Source of the DNA: Epithemia pelagica
Lineage: Eukaryota; Protista; Bacillariophyta
Reading direction: 5' to 3'
Assembly (NCBI GenBank): GCA_946965045.2
Contig: OX337228.1
Location: forward strand, 2,728,001 to 2,792,000
DNA: 64,000 bases
Shown here piece after piece: positions 9,818-58,321 of the stretch. The notes under the pieces were generated by a model, which had not been told where the DNA came from, ran no database searches, and saw only the letters and a list, made by a program, of their open reading frames with translations. Each line of letters opens with the position of its first letter. Position 1 is the first letter of the stretch. The position numbers and the translations under genes are program-made.

Positions 9818-9867
9818 TACTCCTACTCCTACTCTAGCTAGAGTAGGAGTACTAGGAGTAGGAGTAG
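9818..9867. repeat. 49-bp foldback built from TACTCC units
   Basis: 9818-9831 TACTCCTACTCCTA is the reverse complement of 9853-9866; 9824-9851 is a perfect 28-bp palindrome. Confidence 0.9.
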
Positions 9868-9948
9868 TTGTTTGGGGAGACCAGGTAGCATGTGTAGGTG
9901 GTGGTAGCCGACGGGGCAATAGAACAGTTGCCATCGGTGTTTTCGATA

Positions 9949-10159
9949 CGCATCGTACCGCCCCCGGTCAAGAAGGGACCGACGGACGAACGCTGATCGA
10001 GTCATCGCACCCAAAGGAGTTCCTGGAAGAAGAGAGTGTGTTGGGACGGTCTTTGTGAAGACTGTCCCAACAAAGTTTCAACAATCATAAATTGTTGGAA
10101 AGAAGATTTGTGAAGGTCATCGTTGGATTTGATCACCCTACGGTTCTTTACATTCTTCT
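9949..10159 (+). repeat. Split direct repeat A1 (211 bp)
   Basis: Identical by eye to 18247-18457. Confidence 0.95.
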
Positions 10160-10206
10160 CCCTGTTCGACCGTGCCATCCACCTCATCCTTGTCTGCGTT
10201 TGCGTG

Positions 10207-12540
10207 ATGTTTGAGTGGGCAAGTACTCCGGATTCTTCGCCCTCCGTGGGGTCGTCAGGTGAGTCTGCTGTTTCTGTGACCGGGGGGGGGACCCTTCGTT
10301 CGGGTTCTCTCTTCGGTGTTGTTCGTATCGAACAAGATACCTTTGAGGCGTCTTGTCGGGGATTTATCGGGGCAGGGCAGCGCGTGTGCATTCGTACGGA
10401 TTGTTCCGTGGCATCACATGCATCCAAGAAGCACGAGTGGAGTAAGTTAGTCGGTGACGATACCTCGGGGATATTTATTCGCGGTGTCAGTGATTCTTCA
10501 AGTTCCGACGCTTCGGACGTTCTGTTTTGTCAACCGGTTCTTCAAGGCCACTACATTCGCACTCTGGATTGGAATGAAATGGAGTTAAGCCCGCGTTCTC
10601 TTGAGAGTTGGCAAGCAACGTTTGCATCACTCAAGCACGCGTCCTCCGAGTCGGGTGAAGGTGTGGATCTCACAACTGCAGCCAAGGTCATGGAAAACAC
10701 TAAGGCTGAAGTGAAGTTTGTAGCTATGACGCCCAACCCCAAGCGCAAAAAACGGGGACATCAAATGTTGGTGGAAACGGTGTCTAGTGAAGATGAAGAT
10801 GAGATGGGCGTCAAGAGTTCCTCAGTCGCTACTCCTCAGAAAAGACGTGTAGTTCCGTGGAAGGCTGTCCCTGAGGACATCGGAAAGGATCAGCCTACAC
10901 CTACTGTCAAAGTGTTGCAAGGTGGGGCTTGGACTAATTTAGTTACCAATGTCAACACGTTGCGTGAGGAACATGAGAAGGAGGGACAGGAAAGGGTAGT
11001 TCTGGAATCGACGCTGGACGGTGAAATCGAGAGGCTGCACGTGAAACTTTCGGTGATCCATGCTTTGTTGGGAGAGAGGTCCGAAGATTTTGGCACTCAG
11101 TCTGCTTTTGAAGTCTTGACACATTGTATGTCAACTGTGCGCGCTCTCCAAGGTTTGGTGGCCAAGCGACTGGAAGCTCCTCTGGATGCGGGTTTCTTGA
11201 ACCGGTTAGAGGAATTGGATCGAAAAATCGAACAAGCTGTGGCCTCTTCCAAGACGATGGTGCAAGAACGGTTGGATGATTTCTTTGCTGACCACAGTGA
11301 CTTTCGTAAGCAGTTTGTTAACCCAACCTTGCAACTTCTCGCGCGTTCCACGACGGATAAGACTGATCCAGGCGGAAAGTGGGCCGAGACGCTTGCCAAC
11401 CTCAAAACCAGGATCGAGAAAGTTGAGCAAGGTGGTGGAGGTTACCCAGTACATTCTGGTTCGACTACCACAAAGCCGCAGGGAGTCTCTTTTGGATGGC
11501 CCACGAGTTTGGTCTCCTCCGGAGGATGGTCTACCCAAGCAAGTTCTGATGGAAACCAATCGCAGTGGATTCAAGGAGAGTTCCAACGAATGAAAGAGGA
11601 AATCAATGAACTCAAGACTAGTATGAGAGATCTCCAACAACAATCGGAAACGGATGCTATTGTTGTTGGATCGATAGTTTTCCCTTCTCGCGGCTTTTGT
11701 GTGTCGTGGATGGCGCGTCATGCGGTCGAAGCAGACCCGCATGTGTTTGTGGACGCTGTATCGTTGTTGTCTCTAGCCACATCGGATGTGAGCTTGGACG
11801 AAGAACGCGCGGCAAATCTGCGGGCAACCACAGCCAAGGTTCGTGATAAGACGCCTTATCACACCGCATATATCGCGTCGTTTAGCCTGGAAGTACCACC
11901 ATTGCTTGGAAAAGGCGCGGACCAGTCGTTGACCACTAACTCAAGAGCTTTGGGAGGAGTACCGAAATTTGAAGACTTTCATCCGCCGTCCGGTCGCGAA
12001 GGAATACACCAACGCATTTTGGACCATGTTAAGGATGGGCGGAGGACCTTGGAACAAGCGATCGGCGACCTGTTTGCGTTTGGAACCGAGCCGGCTAGTG
12101 TCGCTCATGAATTGCTTTTGCAGAGCAAAACATTTTGGGACGACCTGTGCCACTGGATCATCAGGTATCATCAGCAAGTTCAAGCAGAAAGCGAGGCAAG
12201 TTGTCAAGAAGTGTGGATACTTATCTCACACTGCGTCCGAGCAGTCTTTCGAAGCTTGCGTGAAGCCAGGGCCCCAGGTCGAGCCACAAACACTCCTGCT
12301 GGGATGCTTTGGGGCACTTTGAGGGCCCATGAAGTTATGAAAGAATACAGGCAAGCGGATTTCAGCGGACATCCGAAGATAGCCCTCATTCTTCATGAGC
12401 ATCTGATCCGTTTTGCCACGCCGAGATCCAAGTTCTCTGCTTTGAAGGCTGGGTTGGAAGAACGCATGGACAAGTTACAGCGCTCTGTAAACTCGGTAGT
12501 TGCGGCTTCGAACAAAGGCGGAGGAAAGAAAAATGCATGA
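10207..12540 (+). CDS. Retroelement ORF1, gag-like, with N-terminal Cys/His knuckle and coiled coils
   Basis: First ATG at 10207; CRGFIGAGQRVCIRTDCSVASH (C-x8-C-x4-C-x4-H); heptad-rich central region; position upstream of RT. Confidence 0.8.
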   Translation: MFEWASTPDSSPSVGSSGESAVSVTGGGTLRSGSLFGVVRIEQDTFEASCRGFIGAGQRVCIRTDCSVASHASKKHEWSKLVGDDTSGIFIRGVSDSSSSDASDVLFCQPVLQGHYIRTLDWNEMELSPRSLESWQATFASLKHASSESGEGVDLTTAAKVMENTKAEVKFVAMTPNPKRKKRGHQMLVETVSSEDEDEMGVKSSSVATPQKRRVVPWKAVPEDIGKDQPTPTVKVLQGGAWTNLVTNVNTLREEHEKEGQERVVLESTLDGEIERLHVKLSVIHALLGERSEDFGTQSAFEVLTHCMSTVRALQGLVAKRLEAPLDAGFLNRLEELDRKIEQAVASSKTMVQERLDDFFADHSDFRKQFVNPTLQLLARSTTDKTDPGGKWAETLANLKTRIEKVEQGGGGYPVHSGSTTTKPQGVSFGWPTSLVSSGGWSTQASSDGNQSQWIQGEFQRMKEEINELKTSMRDLQQQSETDAIVVGSIVFPSRGFCVSWMARHAVEADPHVFVDAVSLLSLATSDVSLDEERAANLRATTAKVRDKTPYHTAYIASFSLEVPPLLGKGADQSLTTNSRALGGVPKFEDFHPPSGREGIHQRILDHVKDGRRTLEQAIGDLFAFGTEPASVAHELLLQSKTFWDDLCHWIIRYHQQVQAESEASCQEVWILISHCVRAVFRSLREARAPGRATNTPAGMLWGTLRAHEVMKEYRQADFSGHPKIALILHEHLIRFATPRSKFSALKAGLEERMDKLQRSVNSVVAASNKGGGKKNA

Positions 12541-12552
12541 GATGAAAGAGTT

Positions 12553-15500
12553 GTGAAATCACGGGAGGTTCGAAAAAGAAAGGCTGGGCAGAGGGTTGGC
12601 GATGTGGCGATGCGGAAGGAAAAGGTTGGAGAAGTATTTGATGTCGTGATGGCGAAGGATAATTGTTATGTAGAAAGAAGTTCGCCTTGCAACTCGCAAA
12701 CTGGAGTGGAAGAGCGGAAGATTACTCGTTTGCAAGTAGGACAAGGTAATTGTCGAATCGGATTGGCGAGCGGAGGGACACCCTTTTGGTTTTGGGCCGT
12801 CTCTTCGCTCGGCCAAATACAGTGGATTGATGTTCCAGAGGGACATTGGCATAATGGCGAAACGGGCTCGGAAGGATGGAGTCAATTGGCGATAGGACAA
12901 GAAGGAAAACGTACAAGAAATCGGGGATGCAAGAAGGCACGGATCTCATACACTGCCCCTCAAGCTTGGGACAAACGGTCTGATGTGGATGTAGTCCTGT
13001 TTGATGGAGGTTTGTCTCCTGGTCCAAGGCATCCCGTGTGGAAGATGGAGTCGGTGAAGGTGGTGTGTTGGATAGGAGGGAGAAAGGGCGCAGGACCGTA
13101 CGACAAGTCCCAATGGAACACGACGGTGATGCGTCTTTCTCATGATGAGTTGGGTGGTGTTACAACACAAGTGGCCATGATACATGTGGCGGAGCGTTCT
13201 GATGGTTCGACCAGAACACGGTTCGTTGATTGTTGGAGAAATTACATCGAAGGAGGTTTGAGGAAAACAACAATGAGTGGCGTTGTGGATTGTACGGTCC
13301 ATGGTCGACAATGCAAGGCGCCTCCGAGATACGAGCCGGGAGTTCACGAGAGAACCGTGATGGAGCGAAAGTTACATTGGAAAACTGACCAGTCTCGTGA
13401 GCATGTTTTGCCTTGCGTGTTTTCAAGGACTGATTGGGTGCAGAGAAAGTTGTCGTCACGAGAACTGGCAGTGGCGCTTGATTTTCCTGCAGAGTTGCAC
13501 AAACAAGCAACAGATGAGGAATTGAGATGTTGGATTCAAGAATTGAAGGTCCCATTCAAGTGCAGAGTCCAAGTGGCGATGTCACTGAAGGAATGGATGA
13601 GAGAAGAGGAAGATGGGGACGACGGTAGAATAGGAGAATCTAAAAAAGGAGTTAGTCCCTTTGTTTGCCGTGGAAAAGAAGAAGACGAGTTCGATGAATC
13701 ACGAATGACGGAAACCGAAGCGTTGTTGTCGGTTCCTGACGGTGATGAAGGAGTCGGATCTCTTAACATAGAGGAACGACGTGAGGACAGAAACCTCAAG
13801 GCAACAAAATCGGATGACGCGGCTATTCCAACTTACCTTTGGGATGACCGGATTTGTGACAAACTAGGGATTCGAGACGTGAAGAAACAAGCACATTGTG
13901 TCAAGGCTCTGGAGGTCATCCGACGGGGAGCCCTTAGATATTGGAAGCGCCTTGTTTGCTCGGATTTCTGGCGTTGGTGGCGATACCAACGATTTGATAT
14001 TGACGAGAGTGAGGACAAGAGTCGCAAGGAACGCACGATCGCAGCGGGATTGAGTGCTCTAGCACACGCTTCGGAGGCATCGTGGTGGGACTGGGACAAG
14101 GGTTCTTCACCCTTCTTCTGGAGAATCCCAGATGCACAATGGCTTCAAGAAATGCGCGATGGAATCTCTCCGATGTGGATTGGAGATCCACCGGCATATA
14201 GACGGAGACAGAAAGCAAATCCGGATGAGAAACAAAGAGCGTTTGAAACAAAGAAGCTCGCCAAGGTTCGACGTCGCGGATACATTGCCCCCACGAATGG
14301 CATAAAGTCACTTACGAGTTTCTTTTCCGTTCCCAAGGGCGAAGATGATATTCGTATGGTGTATGACGGAACCAAGAGTGGACTTAACGCCGCTCTATTC
14401 GCGCCTTGGTTCGGCTTGGGAAATGTTACGTCAATGTTGAGGACGGTAGAATCGAAAACTTGGTCGGCCGACAACGATTTCGGCGAAATGTTTTTAAATT
14501 TCTGGTTGCACCCTGATTTGCGAGCTTACACAGGAATTGACATTACCGAGTTGTTTCCTGACGAACTCAAGGCAAAGTTTGGTCGAACACGTCTTTGGGA
14601 AACCTGGTCTCGTTGCGCAATGGGGTTGACCACATCTCCATACCAGGCCACTCAAAATGCACAACGAGTAAAGCGTCTTATATTTGGAGACAGGTTAGAT
14701 CCGACGAACATTTTCGGTTGGGCTGACGTGCGATTGAACTTACCAGGTGATTCGGATTATGACCCGAGTCGGCCGTGGATTAGCAAGATTCGCGGGAACG
14801 GCGATATTGCGGCAGATGTCCATCCATATGTGGACGATCTGAGGGAGACAGCCCCTACGGAGGAAGAGGCCTGGTTGGCAGCGAGCAAGATGGCCAAGGG
14901 GGCGGCATACTACGGACTGCAGGATGCTGCACGGAAAAGGCGACCACCCAGTAGAACCCCCGGTGCATGGGCGGGAGCTGTGGTGGGAACGGACGAGAGG
15001 GGACAAGTATTCAAGACGGTGTCCCAGGAGCGTTGGAACAAAACGCGAGGTCATATAGCGACGTTGAGGAAATGGGCAGAGTCGGATCATAAGATCAACA
15101 GAAAAGAGCTCGAGCGAGTGAGAGGATTCTTGGTTTATGTGTCGTTGACCTTCGATACAATGGTACCTTACCTGAAGGGGATTCATCACACGTTGGAGTC
15201 TTGGCGAGACGATCGCGATGAGGAAGGATGGCGATTGCCCGAGAAAGATCGACGAAAGCGGAAACATAGCGAGAGCCAAGAGTCAAATGTCCCGCCGAAG
15301 GAGGTTGTGCAATCTCCAAGATTCAAAAGTGATGTGGCGGCGTTGAGTAATTTGACGAAAGATGAAACACCGCCAAGGATTCAGGCTCGTCCAATTGCGG
15401 GAGCGAAAGTGGCGATTGTATTTGGTGATGCTTCTGGCGAGGGTTTTGGATCCTCGCTGTGGCTGTATGGGGCAAATACAGTGGAGACAGAGCACGGACT

Positions 15501-16362
15501 GTGGACGCGAGAGTATGGCTCTCGTTCGTCGAACTATCGCGAATTGTATAACCTTGTGTTTCGTTTGGAAGCCTTGATTGACGATGGCACAATTCCAAGT
15601 GGCGCTGAAGTGTTTGTTTTCACTGATAATTCGACCGCGGAGTCCGCATTCTATAAAGGCACATCGTCATCTCGACTGCTGTTTGATCTTGTGCTCAGAA
15701 CAAAACGTTTGGAAATGTTGGGGAAGATATTTGTTCGGGTCATTTGGGTTGCTGGAACCCGAATGATAGAGCAGGGAACGGATGGTCTGTCTCGTGGGGA
15801 TCTGATGACGGGCGTGATGGCCGGGGGGAACATGCTCATGTATGTCCCACTCAATAAAACGGCCGAGGAGAGACAAACCGGTTTGGTAGATTGGTTGAAA
15901 AGTATCGCTCCGTCCATGAATTGGAAGGAGCTTACAGCAAAGGATTGGTTCGAGAGAGCTTTTGAGGATGATAACTTTGTTTGGATGCCGCCGCCAGCCA
16001 TTGCTGATGTTGCCGTGGACCAGTTGTGTGAATCACGACACATCCGCACACGAACCGGCCACATTTTCGTCTGCCCTGCCCTGATGACGAATAGGTGGCG
16101 AAAAAAGCTGGGAAAAGTGGCGGATTGCGTTTTTACTGTGCCAGTGGGAAGTGAATTGTGGAGGAAATCTCAACATGAACCTTTGATTGTTGCTTTTGTT
16201 TGCCCCTTTTTGCACAGGCGTCCGTGGCAAGTCAAACGGGCAAAATCAGTATTGGACCAAGTGGACCGGGAACTGCAAGAGCTGTGGCCATCCGGTGCTT
16301 CCTCTGTGCGGGATTGTTTGCGCAAACTTTGGTTGTACAAGGGGGACGAGCAAGACTTGTAA
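12553..16362 (+). CDS. Retroelement ORF2 (pol): C5-MTase-like N-terminus, reverse transcriptase, RNase H, DIRS MT-like tail
   Basis: RT: FFSVPKGEDDIRMVYDG, DFGEMFLNF, CAMGLTTSPY, YVDD. RNase H: FGDASG, SNYRELYNL, FTDNS, GTDGLSR. Tail: WMPPPAIA...HIFVCP. First in-frame ATG at 12610. Confidence 0.92.
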   Translation: MKSREVRKRKAGQRVGDVAMRKEKVGEVFDVVMAKDNCYVERSSPCNSQTGVEERKITRLQVGQGNCRIGLASGGTPFWFWAVSSLGQIQWIDVPEGHWHNGETGSEGWSQLAIGQEGKRTRNRGCKKARISYTAPQAWDKRSDVDVVLFDGGLSPGPRHPVWKMESVKVVCWIGGRKGAGPYDKSQWNTTVMRLSHDELGGVTTQVAMIHVAERSDGSTRTRFVDCWRNYIEGGLRKTTMSGVVDCTVHGRQCKAPPRYEPGVHERTVMERKLHWKTDQSREHVLPCVFSRTDWVQRKLSSRELAVALDFPAELHKQATDEELRCWIQELKVPFKCRVQVAMSLKEWMREEEDGDDGRIGESKKGVSPFVCRGKEEDEFDESRMTETEALLSVPDGDEGVGSLNIEERREDRNLKATKSDDAAIPTYLWDDRICDKLGIRDVKKQAHCVKALEVIRRGALRYWKRLVCSDFWRWWRYQRFDIDESEDKSRKERTIAAGLSALAHASEASWWDWDKGSSPFFWRIPDAQWLQEMRDGISPMWIGDPPAYRRRQKANPDEKQRAFETKKLAKVRRRGYIAPTNGIKSLTSFFSVPKGEDDIRMVYDGTKSGLNAALFAPWFGLGNVTSMLRTVESKTWSADNDFGEMFLNFWLHPDLRAYTGIDITELFPDELKAKFGRTRLWETWSRCAMGLTTSPYQATQNAQRVKRLIFGDRLDPTNIFGWADVRLNLPGDSDYDPSRPWISKIRGNGDIAADVHPYVDDLRETAPTEEEAWLAASKMAKGAAYYGLQDAARKRRPPSRTPGAWAGAVVGTDERGQVFKTVSQERWNKTRGHIATLRKWAESDHKINRKELERVRGFLVYVSLTFDTMVPYLKGIHHTLESWRDDRDEEGWRLPEKDRRKRKHSESQESNVPPKEVVQSPRFKSDVAALSNLTKDETPPRIQARPIAGAKVAIVFGDASGEGFGSSLWLYGANTVETEHGLWTREYGSRSSNYRELYNLVFRLEALIDDGTIPSGAEVFVFTDNSTAESAFYKGTSSSRLLFDLVLRTKRLEMLGKIFVRVIWVAGTRMIEQGTDGLSRGDLMTGVMAGGNMLMYVPLNKTAEERQTGLVDWLKSIAPSMNWKELTAKDWFERAFEDDNFVWMPPPAIADVAVDQLCESRHIRTRTGHIFVCPALMTNRWRKKLGKVADCVFTVPVGSELWRKSQHEPLIVAFVCPFLHRRPWQVKRAKSVLDQVDRELQELWPSGASSVRDCLRKLWLYKGDEQDL

Positions 16363-17764
16363 AGGCATTTGGCACGCCAAATGTTATCGGCAATTATCTG
16401 AAGATCAGTTCCCAGTGTACGAACCAGGAGATCTAGACGATGCTTTGTTGGATAGTGAATTGAATTGCGAGATGGCAGATGATGAGGGAAGGTTTCAAGA
16501 GGCGAGAATCGGCGACGACTTGATGTGCACTTTTCAGTGCGACGAATGCAGCTTCTTCAATCTTCAAGGCCGATATCCCTTCATGGCTAAAGAATCGGAC
16601 AAGCTGCTCATGTTGTGCATTCGGAGAGCGACATTGGATGCGTTCTGGTCCCGAGAAAGAGCAACTGTGGACAAGAACTGGCGAGAGATGAGAAGTCTGA
16701 TATCAACAGGCGAGGCCATGGGCATGGAGCATCCTTTGCCTTCCAGGGGGCCGTGCCCAACGAAAGATGAACAAGGACTTAATGTTGCTTGTTTGATGTT
16801 GATGAAGACTCTCAATCAAGGCCGCAACTCACGACACATCCAGTTTGAGTCGGCTCGAAAAGTGAGGTCGGTTGTCTCCAATTTCTATCACACTCTCCCA
16901 GGAGGAACAGGGCTTGCAACGGTGGGACAAGGAGAAAGAGGTGGATTGTTCTTCAGTGCTAGTACCACCAACAGTCATTGGTACAAAAGATTCATGACAG
17001 GCTGTCATCGAAGGATGGGAGATGTCTGGATTCCAGACCAAGCCACGACGTTGGATGAAGTCAAGGCCGGCCTGGAAATATTGGAGGAGGAATGGCAAGG
17101 TGGAGCGAAAGGCGCTCGTAAAACAGAACTAGCCTTGACTGGAGCTTTGGTAATTGCTGGATTTGTTGCGGCGCTTCGAGGTGAGGAAATTCCGCAAATA
17201 GACGTCGGACTCATGCGAAAATATTGGCAGGAAGGTCTGGATTATGCTCGTAAGAAGCATGTTCCATTGGCGCTTGCGGGTCGATTCAAGCAGACGAATG
17301 GCACCTTTAGGATTTACATCCACCCGTTGGCAGATGAAACTGCATCTGGAGTCAAGGTCAGGTTGTGGTTTGAACGCGCGATACGATGCTTAAACGACAG
17401 CAAGATCGTGTCGGGTCCAATGTTTCGAGTTACCAAACGTAAGGGACAGATCGCTCGAGCATCGGTGGGGGATTTGGATGTGCTGTTCCATGATTTATGG
17501 AAGCGTATCCAACATCGTCGGCCACATCTTATCGCGGAATCTACAAAGATAGAAGAGGCATACAGCGTGAGAAGATCCTTGAGACGAGGTGCAACCACAG
17601 AAGCCCAGAACAGGGGAATTCCGACAGACGTACTAGAGGCCAACAACAGGTGGAGGAAACACTTACGAGGAAGAGGAGTACTGCCCAATATGTCTATGGT
17701 GGAACGATACTCTGATGCCAAAGCGTCGGTTGAGACGCTGGTTCGATTTTCAGAATTGATGTAA
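16187..17764 (+). CDS. Retroelement ORF3, tyrosine recombinase with N-terminal Cys-rich finger
   Basis: ALRGEE (Arg I), RSLRRGATT (box II), NRW, MVERY (Tyr); open frame overlaps ORF2 by 176 nt in the +1 frame; first ATG only at 16472. Confidence 0.9.
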   Translation: MLLLFAPFCTGVRGKSNGQNQYWTKWTGNCKSCGHPVLPLCGIVCANFGCTRGTSKTCKGIWHAKCYRQLSEDQFPVYEPGDLDDALLDSELNCEMADDEGRFQEARIGDDLMCTFQCDECSFFNLQGRYPFMAKESDKLLMLCIRRATLDAFWSRERATVDKNWREMRSLISTGEAMGMEHPLPSRGPCPTKDEQGLNVACLMLMKTLNQGRNSRHIQFESARKVRSVVSNFYHTLPGGTGLATVGQGERGGLFFSASTTNSHWYKRFMTGCHRRMGDVWIPDQATTLDEVKAGLEILEEEWQGGAKGARKTELALTGALVIAGFVAALRGEEIPQIDVGLMRKYWQEGLDYARKKHVPLALAGRFKQTNGTFRIYIHPLADETASGVKVRLWFERAIRCLNDSKIVSGPMFRVTKRKGQIARASVGDLDVLFHDLWKRIQHRRPHLIAESTKIEEAYSVRRSLRRGATTEAQNRGIPTDVLEANNRWRKHLRGRGVLPNMSMVERYSDAKASVETLVRFSELM

Positions 17765-17830
17765 GAGAAGGAAAAATGAAGCAGAGGTGGAGGATACAGA
17801 TGAATATTGAAGAGAGGAACGACCACACGG

Positions 17831-18248
17831 GGTGAAGACTCGACTGCACTACCTAGTGGTGTATGTCCAGGTCGCTTATTGTCTGTCAGCTTGACTGTGG
17901 AAGAGGAGGGGGTTGTTCTCCGAGTTGGTTGCTTGGGGGTGGCACTCCACAGCAGCTGACTACTGTATTACTGCGAAGAGATTTCGAGAGTACAGACTCA
18001 CTTGTGAGTAAAAGGAGGATGGCTCACTGCTTGGACACACGCTCGCCCACAGCAAACGCGTACTGATCAGAATCTGGAGTTCTGGCAGCGCGGCGCGATT
18101 CCGGATCCCTCCCTAAACGGGATTGATGGGTGGGGGGCCTATACCCCCCCAGTGTTGGTTAAGTACTTAATTATAATATTTATCAATGAGCAGTTGAGTC
18201 AGGAACGACGAGGATTGCGATGTGAGGAAAAGTGAGGATCAAGTACCG
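17831..18248 (+). repeat. Split direct repeat B1 (418 bp)
   Basis: Identical by eye to 18477-18894; the ORF track gives the same 67-aa peptide in both copies. Confidence 0.95.
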
Positions 18249-18457
18249 CATCGTACCGCCCCCGGTCAAGAAGGGACCGACGGACGAACGCTGATCGAGT
18301 CATCGCACCCAAAGGAGTTCCTGGAAGAAGAGAGTGTGTTGGGACGGTCTTTGTGAAGACTGTCCCAACAAAGTTTCAACAATCATAAATTGTTGGAAAG
18401 AAGATTTGTGAAGGTCATCGTTGGATTTGATCACCCTACGGTTCTTTACATTCTTCT
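18247..18457 (+). repeat. Split direct repeat A2 (211 bp)
   Basis: Copy of 9949-10159; shares a CG overlap with the end of B1. Confidence 0.95.
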
Positions 18458-18476
18458 TTCGCCCCCCCGCCCGCCC

Positions 18477-18894
18477 GGTGAAGACTCGACTGCACTACCT
18501 AGTGGTGTATGTCCAGGTCGCTTATTGTCTGTCAGCTTGACTGTGGAAGAGGAGGGGGTTGTTCTCCGAGTTGGTTGCTTGGGGGTGGCACTCCACAGCA
18601 GCTGACTACTGTATTACTGCGAAGAGATTTCGAGAGTACAGACTCACTTGTGAGTAAAAGGAGGATGGCTCACTGCTTGGACACACGCTCGCCCACAGCA
18701 AACGCGTACTGATCAGAATCTGGAGTTCTGGCAGCGCGGCGCGATTCCGGATCCCTCCCTAAACGGGATTGATGGGTGGGGGGCCTATACCCCCCCAGTG
18801 TTGGTTAAGTACTTAATTATAATATTTATCAATGAGCAGTTGAGTCAGGAACGACGAGGATTGCGATGTGAGGAAAAGTGAGGATCAAGTACCG
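18477..18894 (+). repeat. Split direct repeat B2 (418 bp)
   Basis: Copy of 17831-18248; marks the right end of the element. Confidence 0.95.
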
Positions 18895-56679: not shown

Positions 56680-58321
56680 CGGATATCCGTACCCCCTAGC
56701 GGAAGGGTGAGTCCAGGTTGATCGTGATTCAAGGTTCACCCCCAAGGCTCGATCTCGCTCATCCGTCTTTGACCCAAACCCAAAATTTCATTACACACAT
56801 TCACTGCATCCACCACGGAGGGTGGAGGTGCAACAGACTACCATGTCGTCCTCCTAGTCTTCTTCGTCACACAAGCGACACCGTTGGTCCCAACGTGATG
56901 TTAGAGAATGTTATGGCGACGCAGAGACGAAAGCAACGTCCATAGCAAGCAGTATTGAAGCCGCCAACCATGGCACCATTATCGCCAAAAATCAAGGCTC
57001 CTTGTCCAAACCCACTGCTGCTGCTCCATCCTCCGTCCCTGGCAATGACCGTTCCCCTCCAGTCGATGCACCCTCTCCCAACCTTCCCGATGTCCCTGAG
57101 ATGAATTCTAGCAGAGACGAGGATGGTGGTTTTCACAACGGAGATTACACTGCAGACGTAGTATAACGTTGCACACTCATGTTTCCTTACTGGATACTAC
57201 CATTTCAGTGCTCACAGCTATTGGACAATGGCTGTCCTTCATCAATGAGGTTTGTGAGTCCTTGGACGATGGAGAAGACACAACGTTTTTGGATGCGGAA
57301 GGGCAGTGTCATGATTTGCTCAATAATGTAAAGGATTCAACCAAACAATGTGCTCAAAACCCGGAAGGTGGACTCATTCAAAGTTTGGAGACGGAGCTAT
57401 CCATTGGGGTTTGGAATTCTGGGGCCATTACATACAATCCGGTTGCAAGGTTCTCACACAGTCGACAAAAGGACTGAACAAAGGTTGAAATTTGTTGAGT
57501 AATAGTCTTGGCATGTAGAATGGTTCACTGGGACACCAAATAAGACAAGTACTCTGTAGAATGGTTCACCAAGTACTGGCGCTGGGACACCAATTGTTTC
57601 GGGGAAATAGGTTTTGAGGTGCTTTTGTTTGATTGATGCTTTGTCGCCACCCAACAGTGTCGATTCATCTGCATGGTCCATAATGTTGATGAACTCGCTT
57701 GTCCCATGACAATGGCCACCATTTGTGCTCTAGATGTACGATAATAAGGGGTAGGGACCACGGGAGGCATTCGAGCGGAAGCAAATGGATCCAGATCACA
57801 TTTTGGAGCAGGTTCATCTGTTCCGTGGTTGTTGGTGTTTGTAACGTATTGGTGGTGGTGGTTTGAAGCCGTAGAAGTGTCCGAGCAGTTCGTTTCAACG
57901 CCAGGACGGCCCATGAGGTGGGTAGGGATAGGGTCGACAACTCGGGTCGGATTGGGCGGGTGCATAATGGCGTCGGATGGATGGTTTTCGTTCGGGTTGT
58001 TGTTGCTTCCCATTGCATTGTCGTGGTACTGAGATCTAAATGGAAGCAGCGGGTCGGACCGGTTGGTTTCCACGCCAGGAGTGTCCCTTGGGTTGGTAGA
58101 GACAGGATGAACAACGCGGGTGGACTTCGGAGGGTCCATGGGTGCTGCTACAACCACAGCAAGATGGGCCTCGTGGTGTTTGCGTTGTGGTAGTTGTGAG
58201 TTTGGGTCAAAGTCGGAAAATCGCCAATTTTGAGAATCGCGCCTTGGGGGTGAGTATCAGAATGCTCCCTCTCTCATTCACGACCAGGACTCACCCTTCC
58301 GCTAGGGAGTACGGATATCCG
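56680..58321. mobile_element. Non-autonomous 1.64-kb TIR element with long imperfect TIRs, flanked by CGGATATCCG
   Basis: 56680-56714 vs 58287-58321 inverted (1 mismatch); further inverted blocks 56736-56753/58236-58253 and 56763-56782/58197-58216. Confidence 0.85.
57525..58139 (-). other. Cargo ORF inside the TIR element with a 58-aa internal duplication
   Basis: PPKSTRVVHP...PGVETNRSD and PPNPTRVVDP...PGVETNCSD, 174-nt period; no known domain. Confidence 0.45.

Follow-up and report, generated by a model that had tools for sequence, protein, structure and literature searches.

In retrotransposons of the order DIRS a tyrosine recombinase (YR) takes the place of the DDE integrase, next to a reverse transcriptase (RT) as well as an RNase H. 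Split direct repeats fit two groups of such elements, PAT-like and Ngaro, which in the available sections of the published descriptions are distinguished by a methyltransferase domain (PMC3266345, PMC13465315, PMC6681497). PAT-like elements combine A1-B1-A2-B2 repeats with gag, RT-RNase H and YR in overlapping open reading frames (ORFs), a methyltransferase-like domain after the RNase H and no target-site duplication beyond a common 2-bp core (PMC3266345, PMC6681497), while Ngaro elements are described without the methyltransferase domain and usually without ORF overlaps (PMC3266345), although the ORFs of Xenopus Ngaro do overlap. Ngaro elements with the same repeat layout and ORF order have also been described in stramenopiles (PMC8547959, Cafeteria; PMC12477816, Ectocarpus) and in fungi (PMC3783388). 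Here we analyse an element with the PAT-like features listed above, its gag being putative, in the diatom Epithemia pelagica, at positions 9949-18894 of a window of 64,000 nucleotides (nt) (assembly GCA_946965045.2, contig OX337228.1, positions 2,728,001 to 2,792,000; coordinates below are counted from the first letter of this window, and all features of the element are on the + strand). Its YR is very probably made from a spliced subgenomic mRNA, in which a donor at 10259 is joined to an acceptor at 16217 and 5959 nt of gag-pol are removed, as judged from the conservation of both sites in related elements.

Predicted splice sites in the element

The element contains a putative gag (ORF1, 10207-12540, 777 aa, ending in TGA), followed in frame by pol (ORF2, 12541-16362) and by the YR frame (ORF3), which lies in the +1 frame, is open from 16187 to its stop at 17764 and overlaps the end of ORF2 by 176 nt. 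The N-terminus of the YR has a conserved Cys/His finger at 16274-16384 (CKSC from 16274, WHAKC from 16370), upstream of the first in-frame ATG at 16472. Just after the ORF1 ATG lies the consensus donor CAG/GTGAGT (10256-10264), with the intron starting at 10259 after 52 coding nt, in phase 1, and the ATG at 10207 is the only one between the start of the element and this donor. At the other end, the acceptor ...TTTTTGCACAG/G ends at 16217 and is preceded by 52 AG-free bases; the AG-free pyrimidine-rich tract spans 16164-16217 and includes the acceptor CAG at 16215-16217, and the only AGs within 16160-16217 are those at 16162 and 16216. A branch-like TTGAT is present at 16183-16187, its TGA being a stop in the ORF3 frame. 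Joining the two sites would link a first coding exon (10207-10258: the ATG, 17 codons and one base), common to gag and the predicted YR mRNA, to a second exon at 16218-17764, and would remove an intron of 5959 nt (10259-16217) that takes up the greater part of gag and almost the whole of pol; the joined frame continues without interruption through 532 aa up to the stop of ORF3. An earlier note on this DNA had described the finger without a start codon, the phase-1 donor, the acceptor with no other AG at 16164-16215 and the in-frame join, and all four hold by coordinates.

Both sites stand out in the element. No perfect MAG/GTRAGT other than the donor occurs in its 8.9 kb, and the two strands of the 64 kb together hold just three. 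The acceptor is the most pyrimidine-rich YAG among the 653 AGs of the element, tied with the one at 16900 (AG-free run 52 vs 33 nt). A run of nine G (10282-10290) lies just inside the predicted intron.

Conservation of the acceptor

Related elements were taken from a metagenome scan, of which the best 80 of 419 confirmed loci were used for all conservation counts. Together with the window these gave 77 loci anchored on the finger. A filter that required intact Glu/Asp-Pro codons, 70 flanking ORF2 codons free of stops and an upstream stretch of 150 nt or more let 55 of them through, and dereplication at 80% identity reduced these to 46; the 46 include the window, to whose YR those of the others are 31-56% identical. 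As a null, the same amino acids were recoded with the codon usage of the family in 2000 synonymous recodings, and as related elements are not independent samples, the values obtained are not exact probabilities. Counting from the conserved Glu-Pro codons of ORF2, the first AG to follow was in phase 1 for ORF3 in all elements (46/46, vs 19.2 in the null, with a maximum of 30 in 2000), and a YAG in phase 1 was present in 42/46 (null 10.5, maximum 21). This acceptor AG is found at ORF2 codon 9, 11, 12, 13, 14 or 19, thus at six positions with a constant phase, and has therefore moved by whole codons. The result was the same with stricter dereplication (40/40 at 70% identity, 31/31 at 65% and 19/19 at 60%), and when 236 other starting points in ORF2 were used, on average 25% of the elements were in phase and never more than 59%. 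Similarly, the fourfold degenerate sites in the tract before the AG were pyrimidines in 240 of 284 cases (85%), compared with 51% elsewhere. A stop in the ORF3 frame is present just before the acceptor in 36/46 elements.

Conservation of the donor and the G-run

For the donor, 22 candidate ORF1 starts including that of the window were picked by eye from loci of at least 4.5 kb, and 15 of these were used. Left out were one of two loci that are one family (L029, the other being L028), one that is not ORF1 (L013), two with a cut 5' end (L046, L059), two with a broken ORF1 (L064, L070) and one without ORF2 (L021), which was scored apart; L059 shows CAG/GTGAGT in phase 1, and L064 by eye a phase-1 GTAAGT. 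The best donor in the first 90 ORF1 codons was in phase 1 in 15/15 elements (null 8.5, maximum 14), and in 14/15 it was both in phase 1 and matched 6 or 7 of the 7 consensus positions (null 1.3, maximum 7; 1/100 in other ORF1 intervals). Its distance from the ATG is 17-71 codons, and the leaders themselves are otherwise dissimilar, with a median pairwise identity of 22% over the N-terminal 400 residues of ORF1. At 61 other places X-Gly-Glu/Lys was never encoded in the manner of the donor. The joined frames are open in 15/15 elements, for 532-576 aa. In the nine elements with both sites collinear the intron length is 5.6-6.8 kb, except in L039, where a tandem duplication is present and the intron measures 7.9 kb. 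A run of at least six G within 54 nt of the donor was found in 14/15 elements (null 1.2, maximum 6; 5/528 in other intervals). At the level of sequence, these comparisons show that both sites and the G-run are conserved among divergent relatives to a degree for which the encoded amino acids do not account. The earlier note had proposed conservation of donor, acceptor and phase in related elements as a check, and as both sites and their common phase 1 have been kept, its claim that the integrase comes from a spliced RNA is supported. The predicted intron thus has the characteristics of a GT-AG intron, namely a donor, a pyrimidine tract, a YAG and a matching phase, all conserved.

In L021 (1191-4925), a 4.9-kb element with overlapping contig ends and likely non-autonomous, ORF1 and the YR are intact and ORF2 is almost wholly deleted, and an in-frame ATG for the YR directly follows the stop of ORF1. 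The idea that this element had lost both splice sites upon gaining its own ATG was rejected, as the donor matches 6 of 7 positions in phase 1 and the first AG after an AG-free tract is, by eye, in phase. L031 (94-310) is a YR relative with upstream DNA other than ORF2, yet with a G-run, a long pyrimidine tract and a phase-1 acceptor; an intron of 170 nt from GTAAGT at 140 would link an ATG at 94 in frame. L039 (2910-7381) contains an exact tandem duplication of 2236 nt over the ORF1/ORF2 border, either natural or an assembly artefact.

Start of the recombinase and candidate spliced proteins

All full-length relatives have kept the finger, and gene callers place their starts at scattered codons. 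In 31 of the 44 elements where the first CxxC of the finger could be located, there is no in-frame ATG before it. A conserved splice would provide the true N-terminus of the recombinase, including the finger that the gene callers have removed. We also screened 410 proteins. The finger anchor was present in 167 of these, and at least 48 residues preceded it in 20 distinct ones; by eye, most of these 20 are genomic read-through or gene-model fusions. Two of them, P0398 and P0331, encoded on Logan contigs (2059 and 1869 nt), have a Met-started leader rich in Ser, Gly and acidic residues. This leader takes the place of the genomic reading at precisely 19 and 18 residues ahead of the finger, which is where the acceptor lies in the loci closest to them, and the residues at the join, Asp and Gly, are those predicted by a phase-1 AG/GT donor. 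They may be spliced products. A leader-bearing form was absent from the members of 10 clusters, and the joint 10258/16218, as expected in a retroposed DNA copy of a spliced RNA, was absent from the joints listed for three DNA runs (15 of 32 and 15 of 55).

Evidence against splicing and alternative explanations

Several observations weigh against splicing as the source of the YR, the evidence for which is comparative throughout. With regard to the acceptor, 12 of the 22 loci dropped by the filter were inspected, and 9 were in phase and 3 out of phase (L069, L076 and L079, from two families). The branch point is weak, with CTRAY in 18/46 elements compared to 9.6 in the null (reached in 3 of 2000 recodings), and YTRAY in 25 vs 22.6, which is not significant. 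With regard to the donor, ORF1 is located behind ORF3 in the contig for 6/15 elements, so that donor and acceptor may there belong to different copies, and L035, L036 and L039 are close kin (56-64%). An in-frame ATG does precede the finger in 13/44 elements. The leaders of P0398 and P0331 matched no ORF1, and a profile of these leaders found only themselves among 1209 candidates; the source runs may be DNA, and in P0331 the leader extends some 20 codons beyond a stretch of Ser-Gly-Glu resembling the usual donor, so this protein may represent a deletion or a second donor. The two proteins are thus suggestive only. Finally, P0267 and P0284 are in-frame fusions of ORF2 and ORF3, each from a single record, and either favour a ribosomal frameshift or are indel errors.

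Of the alternatives, we regard it as improbable that the YR starts internally or at a non-AUG codon, for instance at ATG 16472 from an internal promoter, with the splice-like signals being by-products of coding. A recombinase begun at 16472 would retain the catalytic domain, but would lack the conserved finger. The ORF2 strand is hydrophobic in this region and hence T-rich by coding; however, the nulls in which the amino acids were fixed still fall far short of the observed conservation. The ATGs found before the finger in 13 elements are scattered in position, and seven of them derive from a conserved ORF2 codon pair, while L021, where the ATG right behind the ORF1 stop would suit such a start, has retained its phase-1 donor.

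Equally improbable in our view is a +1 ribosomal frameshift in the ORF2/ORF3 overlap giving a Pol-YR fusion, with the conserved AGN acting as a slow A-site codon in the manner of Ty1, which shifts at CUU-AGG-C. The position of ORF3, in the +1 frame and overlapping ORF2, would allow this, as would the fact that the conserved AG starts an ORF2 codon and the existence of the two fusion records. The window also has CCC TTT TTG just upstream, and loosely slippery 4-mers are present in 33/46 elements, a count made with no control. However, the codon preceding AGN can be any of 19 codons and is CTT in only 3/46 elements, and just its last base (C or T) has been kept, which makes a YAG rather than a slippery site; nor are AGA and AGG rare codons in these ORFs. 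Frameshifting also leaves unexplained the pyrimidine bias, the exclusion of AG, and a phase-matched donor with a G-run 6 kb upstream. This explanation fails on the variable codon before the AG and the unexplained donor.

It is just as doubtful that the splice signals are real but serve another purpose (destroying or limiting full-length RNA, alternative donors or acceptors, or short non-autonomous copies) with the joined protein not a working integrase. A second phase-1 GTAAGT at 10442 and the apparent joining of P0331 downstream of the usual donor motif could be fitted to this view. However, donor and acceptor agree in phase wherever an element has the two of them, and the joined frames stay open over 532-576 aa, features that only a translated product would need.

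Structure and classification of the element

The element is made up as A1-ORFs-B1-A2-B2, from repeat analysis and an empty-site joint. The A repeats (A1 9949-10159, A2 18247-18457; 211 nt) and the B repeats (B1 17831-18248, B2 18477-18894; 418 nt) are each 100% identical within the pair. The dinucleotide CG is present at both ends and at the B1/A2 junction, as would be expected for the crossover core of the recombinase. A contig of the empty site, joining 9935 to 18893, was found in 3/3 DNA runs (two samples from one study, which may itself be where the DNA of the window comes from), and the insertion is therefore polymorphic, with a 2-bp CG core. The element at 9949-18894 is thus an intact, insertion-polymorphic split-direct-repeat YR retrotransposon. 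Upstream of the insertion site there is a near-palindromic CT/AG-rich tract at about 9820-9870. Contig depth peaks near 10200 and 16100; these give no copy number and were left unused.

ORF1 is a long first ORF with homologues upstream of ORF2 in the relatives, without a significant Pfam or family match, and is labelled gag by position alone. In ORF2, the RT was assigned from the motif YVDD at 14827 and from sub-threshold RVT_1 matches in ORF2 of 2/8 relatives (E 0.025 and 0.05). An RNase H fold follows at about 15400-15830 (Foldseek E 4e-6; VIA Z 13.6, root-mean-square deviation (rmsd) 2.4 over 122), at the end of ORF2, and after it at about 15850-16300 a methyltransferase-like fold: of the 13 top-50 matches covering model residues 150-320, 12 are S-adenosylmethionine-dependent methyltransferases and the remaining one a DUF519 protein. 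The best Z score is 6.6 (6irx, rmsd 2.8 over 110), with Dam (2ore) at Z 6.3 and rmsd 3.2 over 98, and with Z below 8 and no Pfam match the support for this domain is moderate. Searches of Pfam and PDB sequences with ORF2, ORF3 and an alignment of the RNase H-methyltransferase region gave no matches. The ORF3 model has a Cre-like fold (mean predicted local distance difference test value, pLDDT, of 83), the top ten Foldseek matches are all Cre or Tre (E 2e-4 to 4e-4), and among its Atlas neighbours PF00589 is present in 18% and 29% of members. Its motifs are RGEE, SLRRG, NRW and RYS, with Ser in the usual His position of HxxR; this Ser-Leu-Arg-Arg, at 17576-17590, is common to many relatives.

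With a YR in place of a DDE integrase and with RT and RNase H, the element belongs in the order DIRS. No inverted repeat of at least 25 nt was found in the element, which separates it from DIRS1-like elements with their inverted terminal repeats and internal complementary region. The split direct repeats A1-B1-A2-B2 are those of both PAT-like and Ngaro-like elements. The overlap of ORF2 and ORF3 alone cannot discriminate between these, because of the overlapping ORFs of Xenopus Ngaro, and with a methyltransferase-like fold of moderate support following the RNase H, PAT-like is provisionally the better filing, as set against the published descriptions of both groups. The YR profile matches 751 clusters at 50% identity at E 1e-30, and those relatives that carry a species name belong to diatoms of the genera Epithemia, Fragilaria, Pseudo-nitzschia (JGI label Psemu1) and Cylindrotheca, in line with a diatom host. 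No relatives were found in viral contigs and prokaryote genomes, and a region search with the YR N-terminus returned just three close relatives. Elsewhere in the window there are two inverted-repeat pairs, at 88-708 (54 nt, 96%) and 56680-58321 (39 nt, 95%), enclosing 513 and 1564 nt, which are likely to be small DNA transposons.

A model for expression

We propose that a transcript starting in repeat A would either be left whole or be spliced by the host spliceosome at the donor and acceptor described here. The spliced RNA would fuse the gag ATG and first 17 codons to the recombinase frame, giving a leader followed by the YR, and the unspliced RNA would serve as gag/pol mRNA and as template for reverse transcription. 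With regard to pol, the ORF1 stop is TGA in 17/18 junctions (that of the window at 12538-12543 and 17 related ones, of which those of L028 and L029 represent a single family), and ORF2 continues in frame behind it for at least 150 codons in 13/18. The purine-rich, in-frame border between ORF1 and ORF2 showed, by eye, no extra acceptor feeding ORF2. The arrangement of one TGA followed in frame by ORF2 fits readthrough to Gag-Pol, and readthrough is our candidate route by which pol would be reached. The G-run may tune the splicing of the long intron or mark the unspliced RNA; in mammals, enlarged introns are spliced more readily when hnRNP F/H sites lie at their ends (PMC1326234), and a tuning of splicing via such G-rich sites and a role in packaging or structure are equally possible.

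By a narrow preference, we favour a wider scheme for this widespread algal YR family, in which a single AUG would give Gag by termination, Gag-Pol by UGA readthrough and YR by a splice of 5.6-6.8 kb governed by the conserved intronic G-run, with the host spliceosome setting the ratio of integrase to template, convergent with env splicing. If the splice takes place, a unicellular alga splices an alternative intron of 6 kb, the rate of transposition is tied to host splicing, and the annotation of a large YR family will need to be corrected.

Comparison with known systems

No report of spliced YR expression in the order DIRS was found in a search of the full-text literature, outside which lie the main reviews and Repbase. 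Splicing is unmentioned in the main text of PMC8547959, PMC3783388, PMC9210276 and PMC3266345 and in 12 of the 13 supplements of PMC6681497, and in the available parts of PMC7192593 and PMC5633606 it concerns a marker intron only. The accessible portions of PMC4157794 (section 6), PMC9341512 and PMC8226300 hold nothing further on YR splicing, and in the available part of the Ectocarpus curation table (PMC12477816) splicing is first mentioned in a DNA-transposon row, after the listed Ngaro and PAT-like rows. The translation route of overlapping YR ORFs in DIRS-order elements is not stated in the portions of the literature covered. The element differs from PAT-like elements, for which the available parts of PMC3266345 and PMC6681497 give no route of YR expression, in having a conserved donor in the gag leader and an acceptor before the YR, and from Ngaro elements in its methyltransferase-like fold and its ORF overlap.

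The earlier note had compared the predicted RNA with the subgenomic RNAs of both retroviral env and copia. In plant Ty1/Copia elements, a conserved splice gives a short subgenomic RNA for GAG and sets the ratios of the proteins, but according to the available sections this splice is coupled to early termination, makes Gag only and supplies no start codon for a downstream enzyme (PMC5580714). Since this spliced RNA makes Gag and not the integrase, the likeness to copia does not extend to the product, and retroviral env is the closer analogy. The env subgenomic mRNA of avian leukosis/sarcoma virus keeps the first gag codons, and the pol of foamy viruses is made from a spliced mRNA. As in retroviral env mRNA, the element has a 5' donor near the start of gag, an acceptor inside the 3' end of pol and a long predicted gag-pol intron between them, and its unspliced RNA would be kept as genome; in contrast to retroviruses, its spliced product would be a Cre-like tyrosine recombinase, in an element that is protease-less and of non-LTR type.

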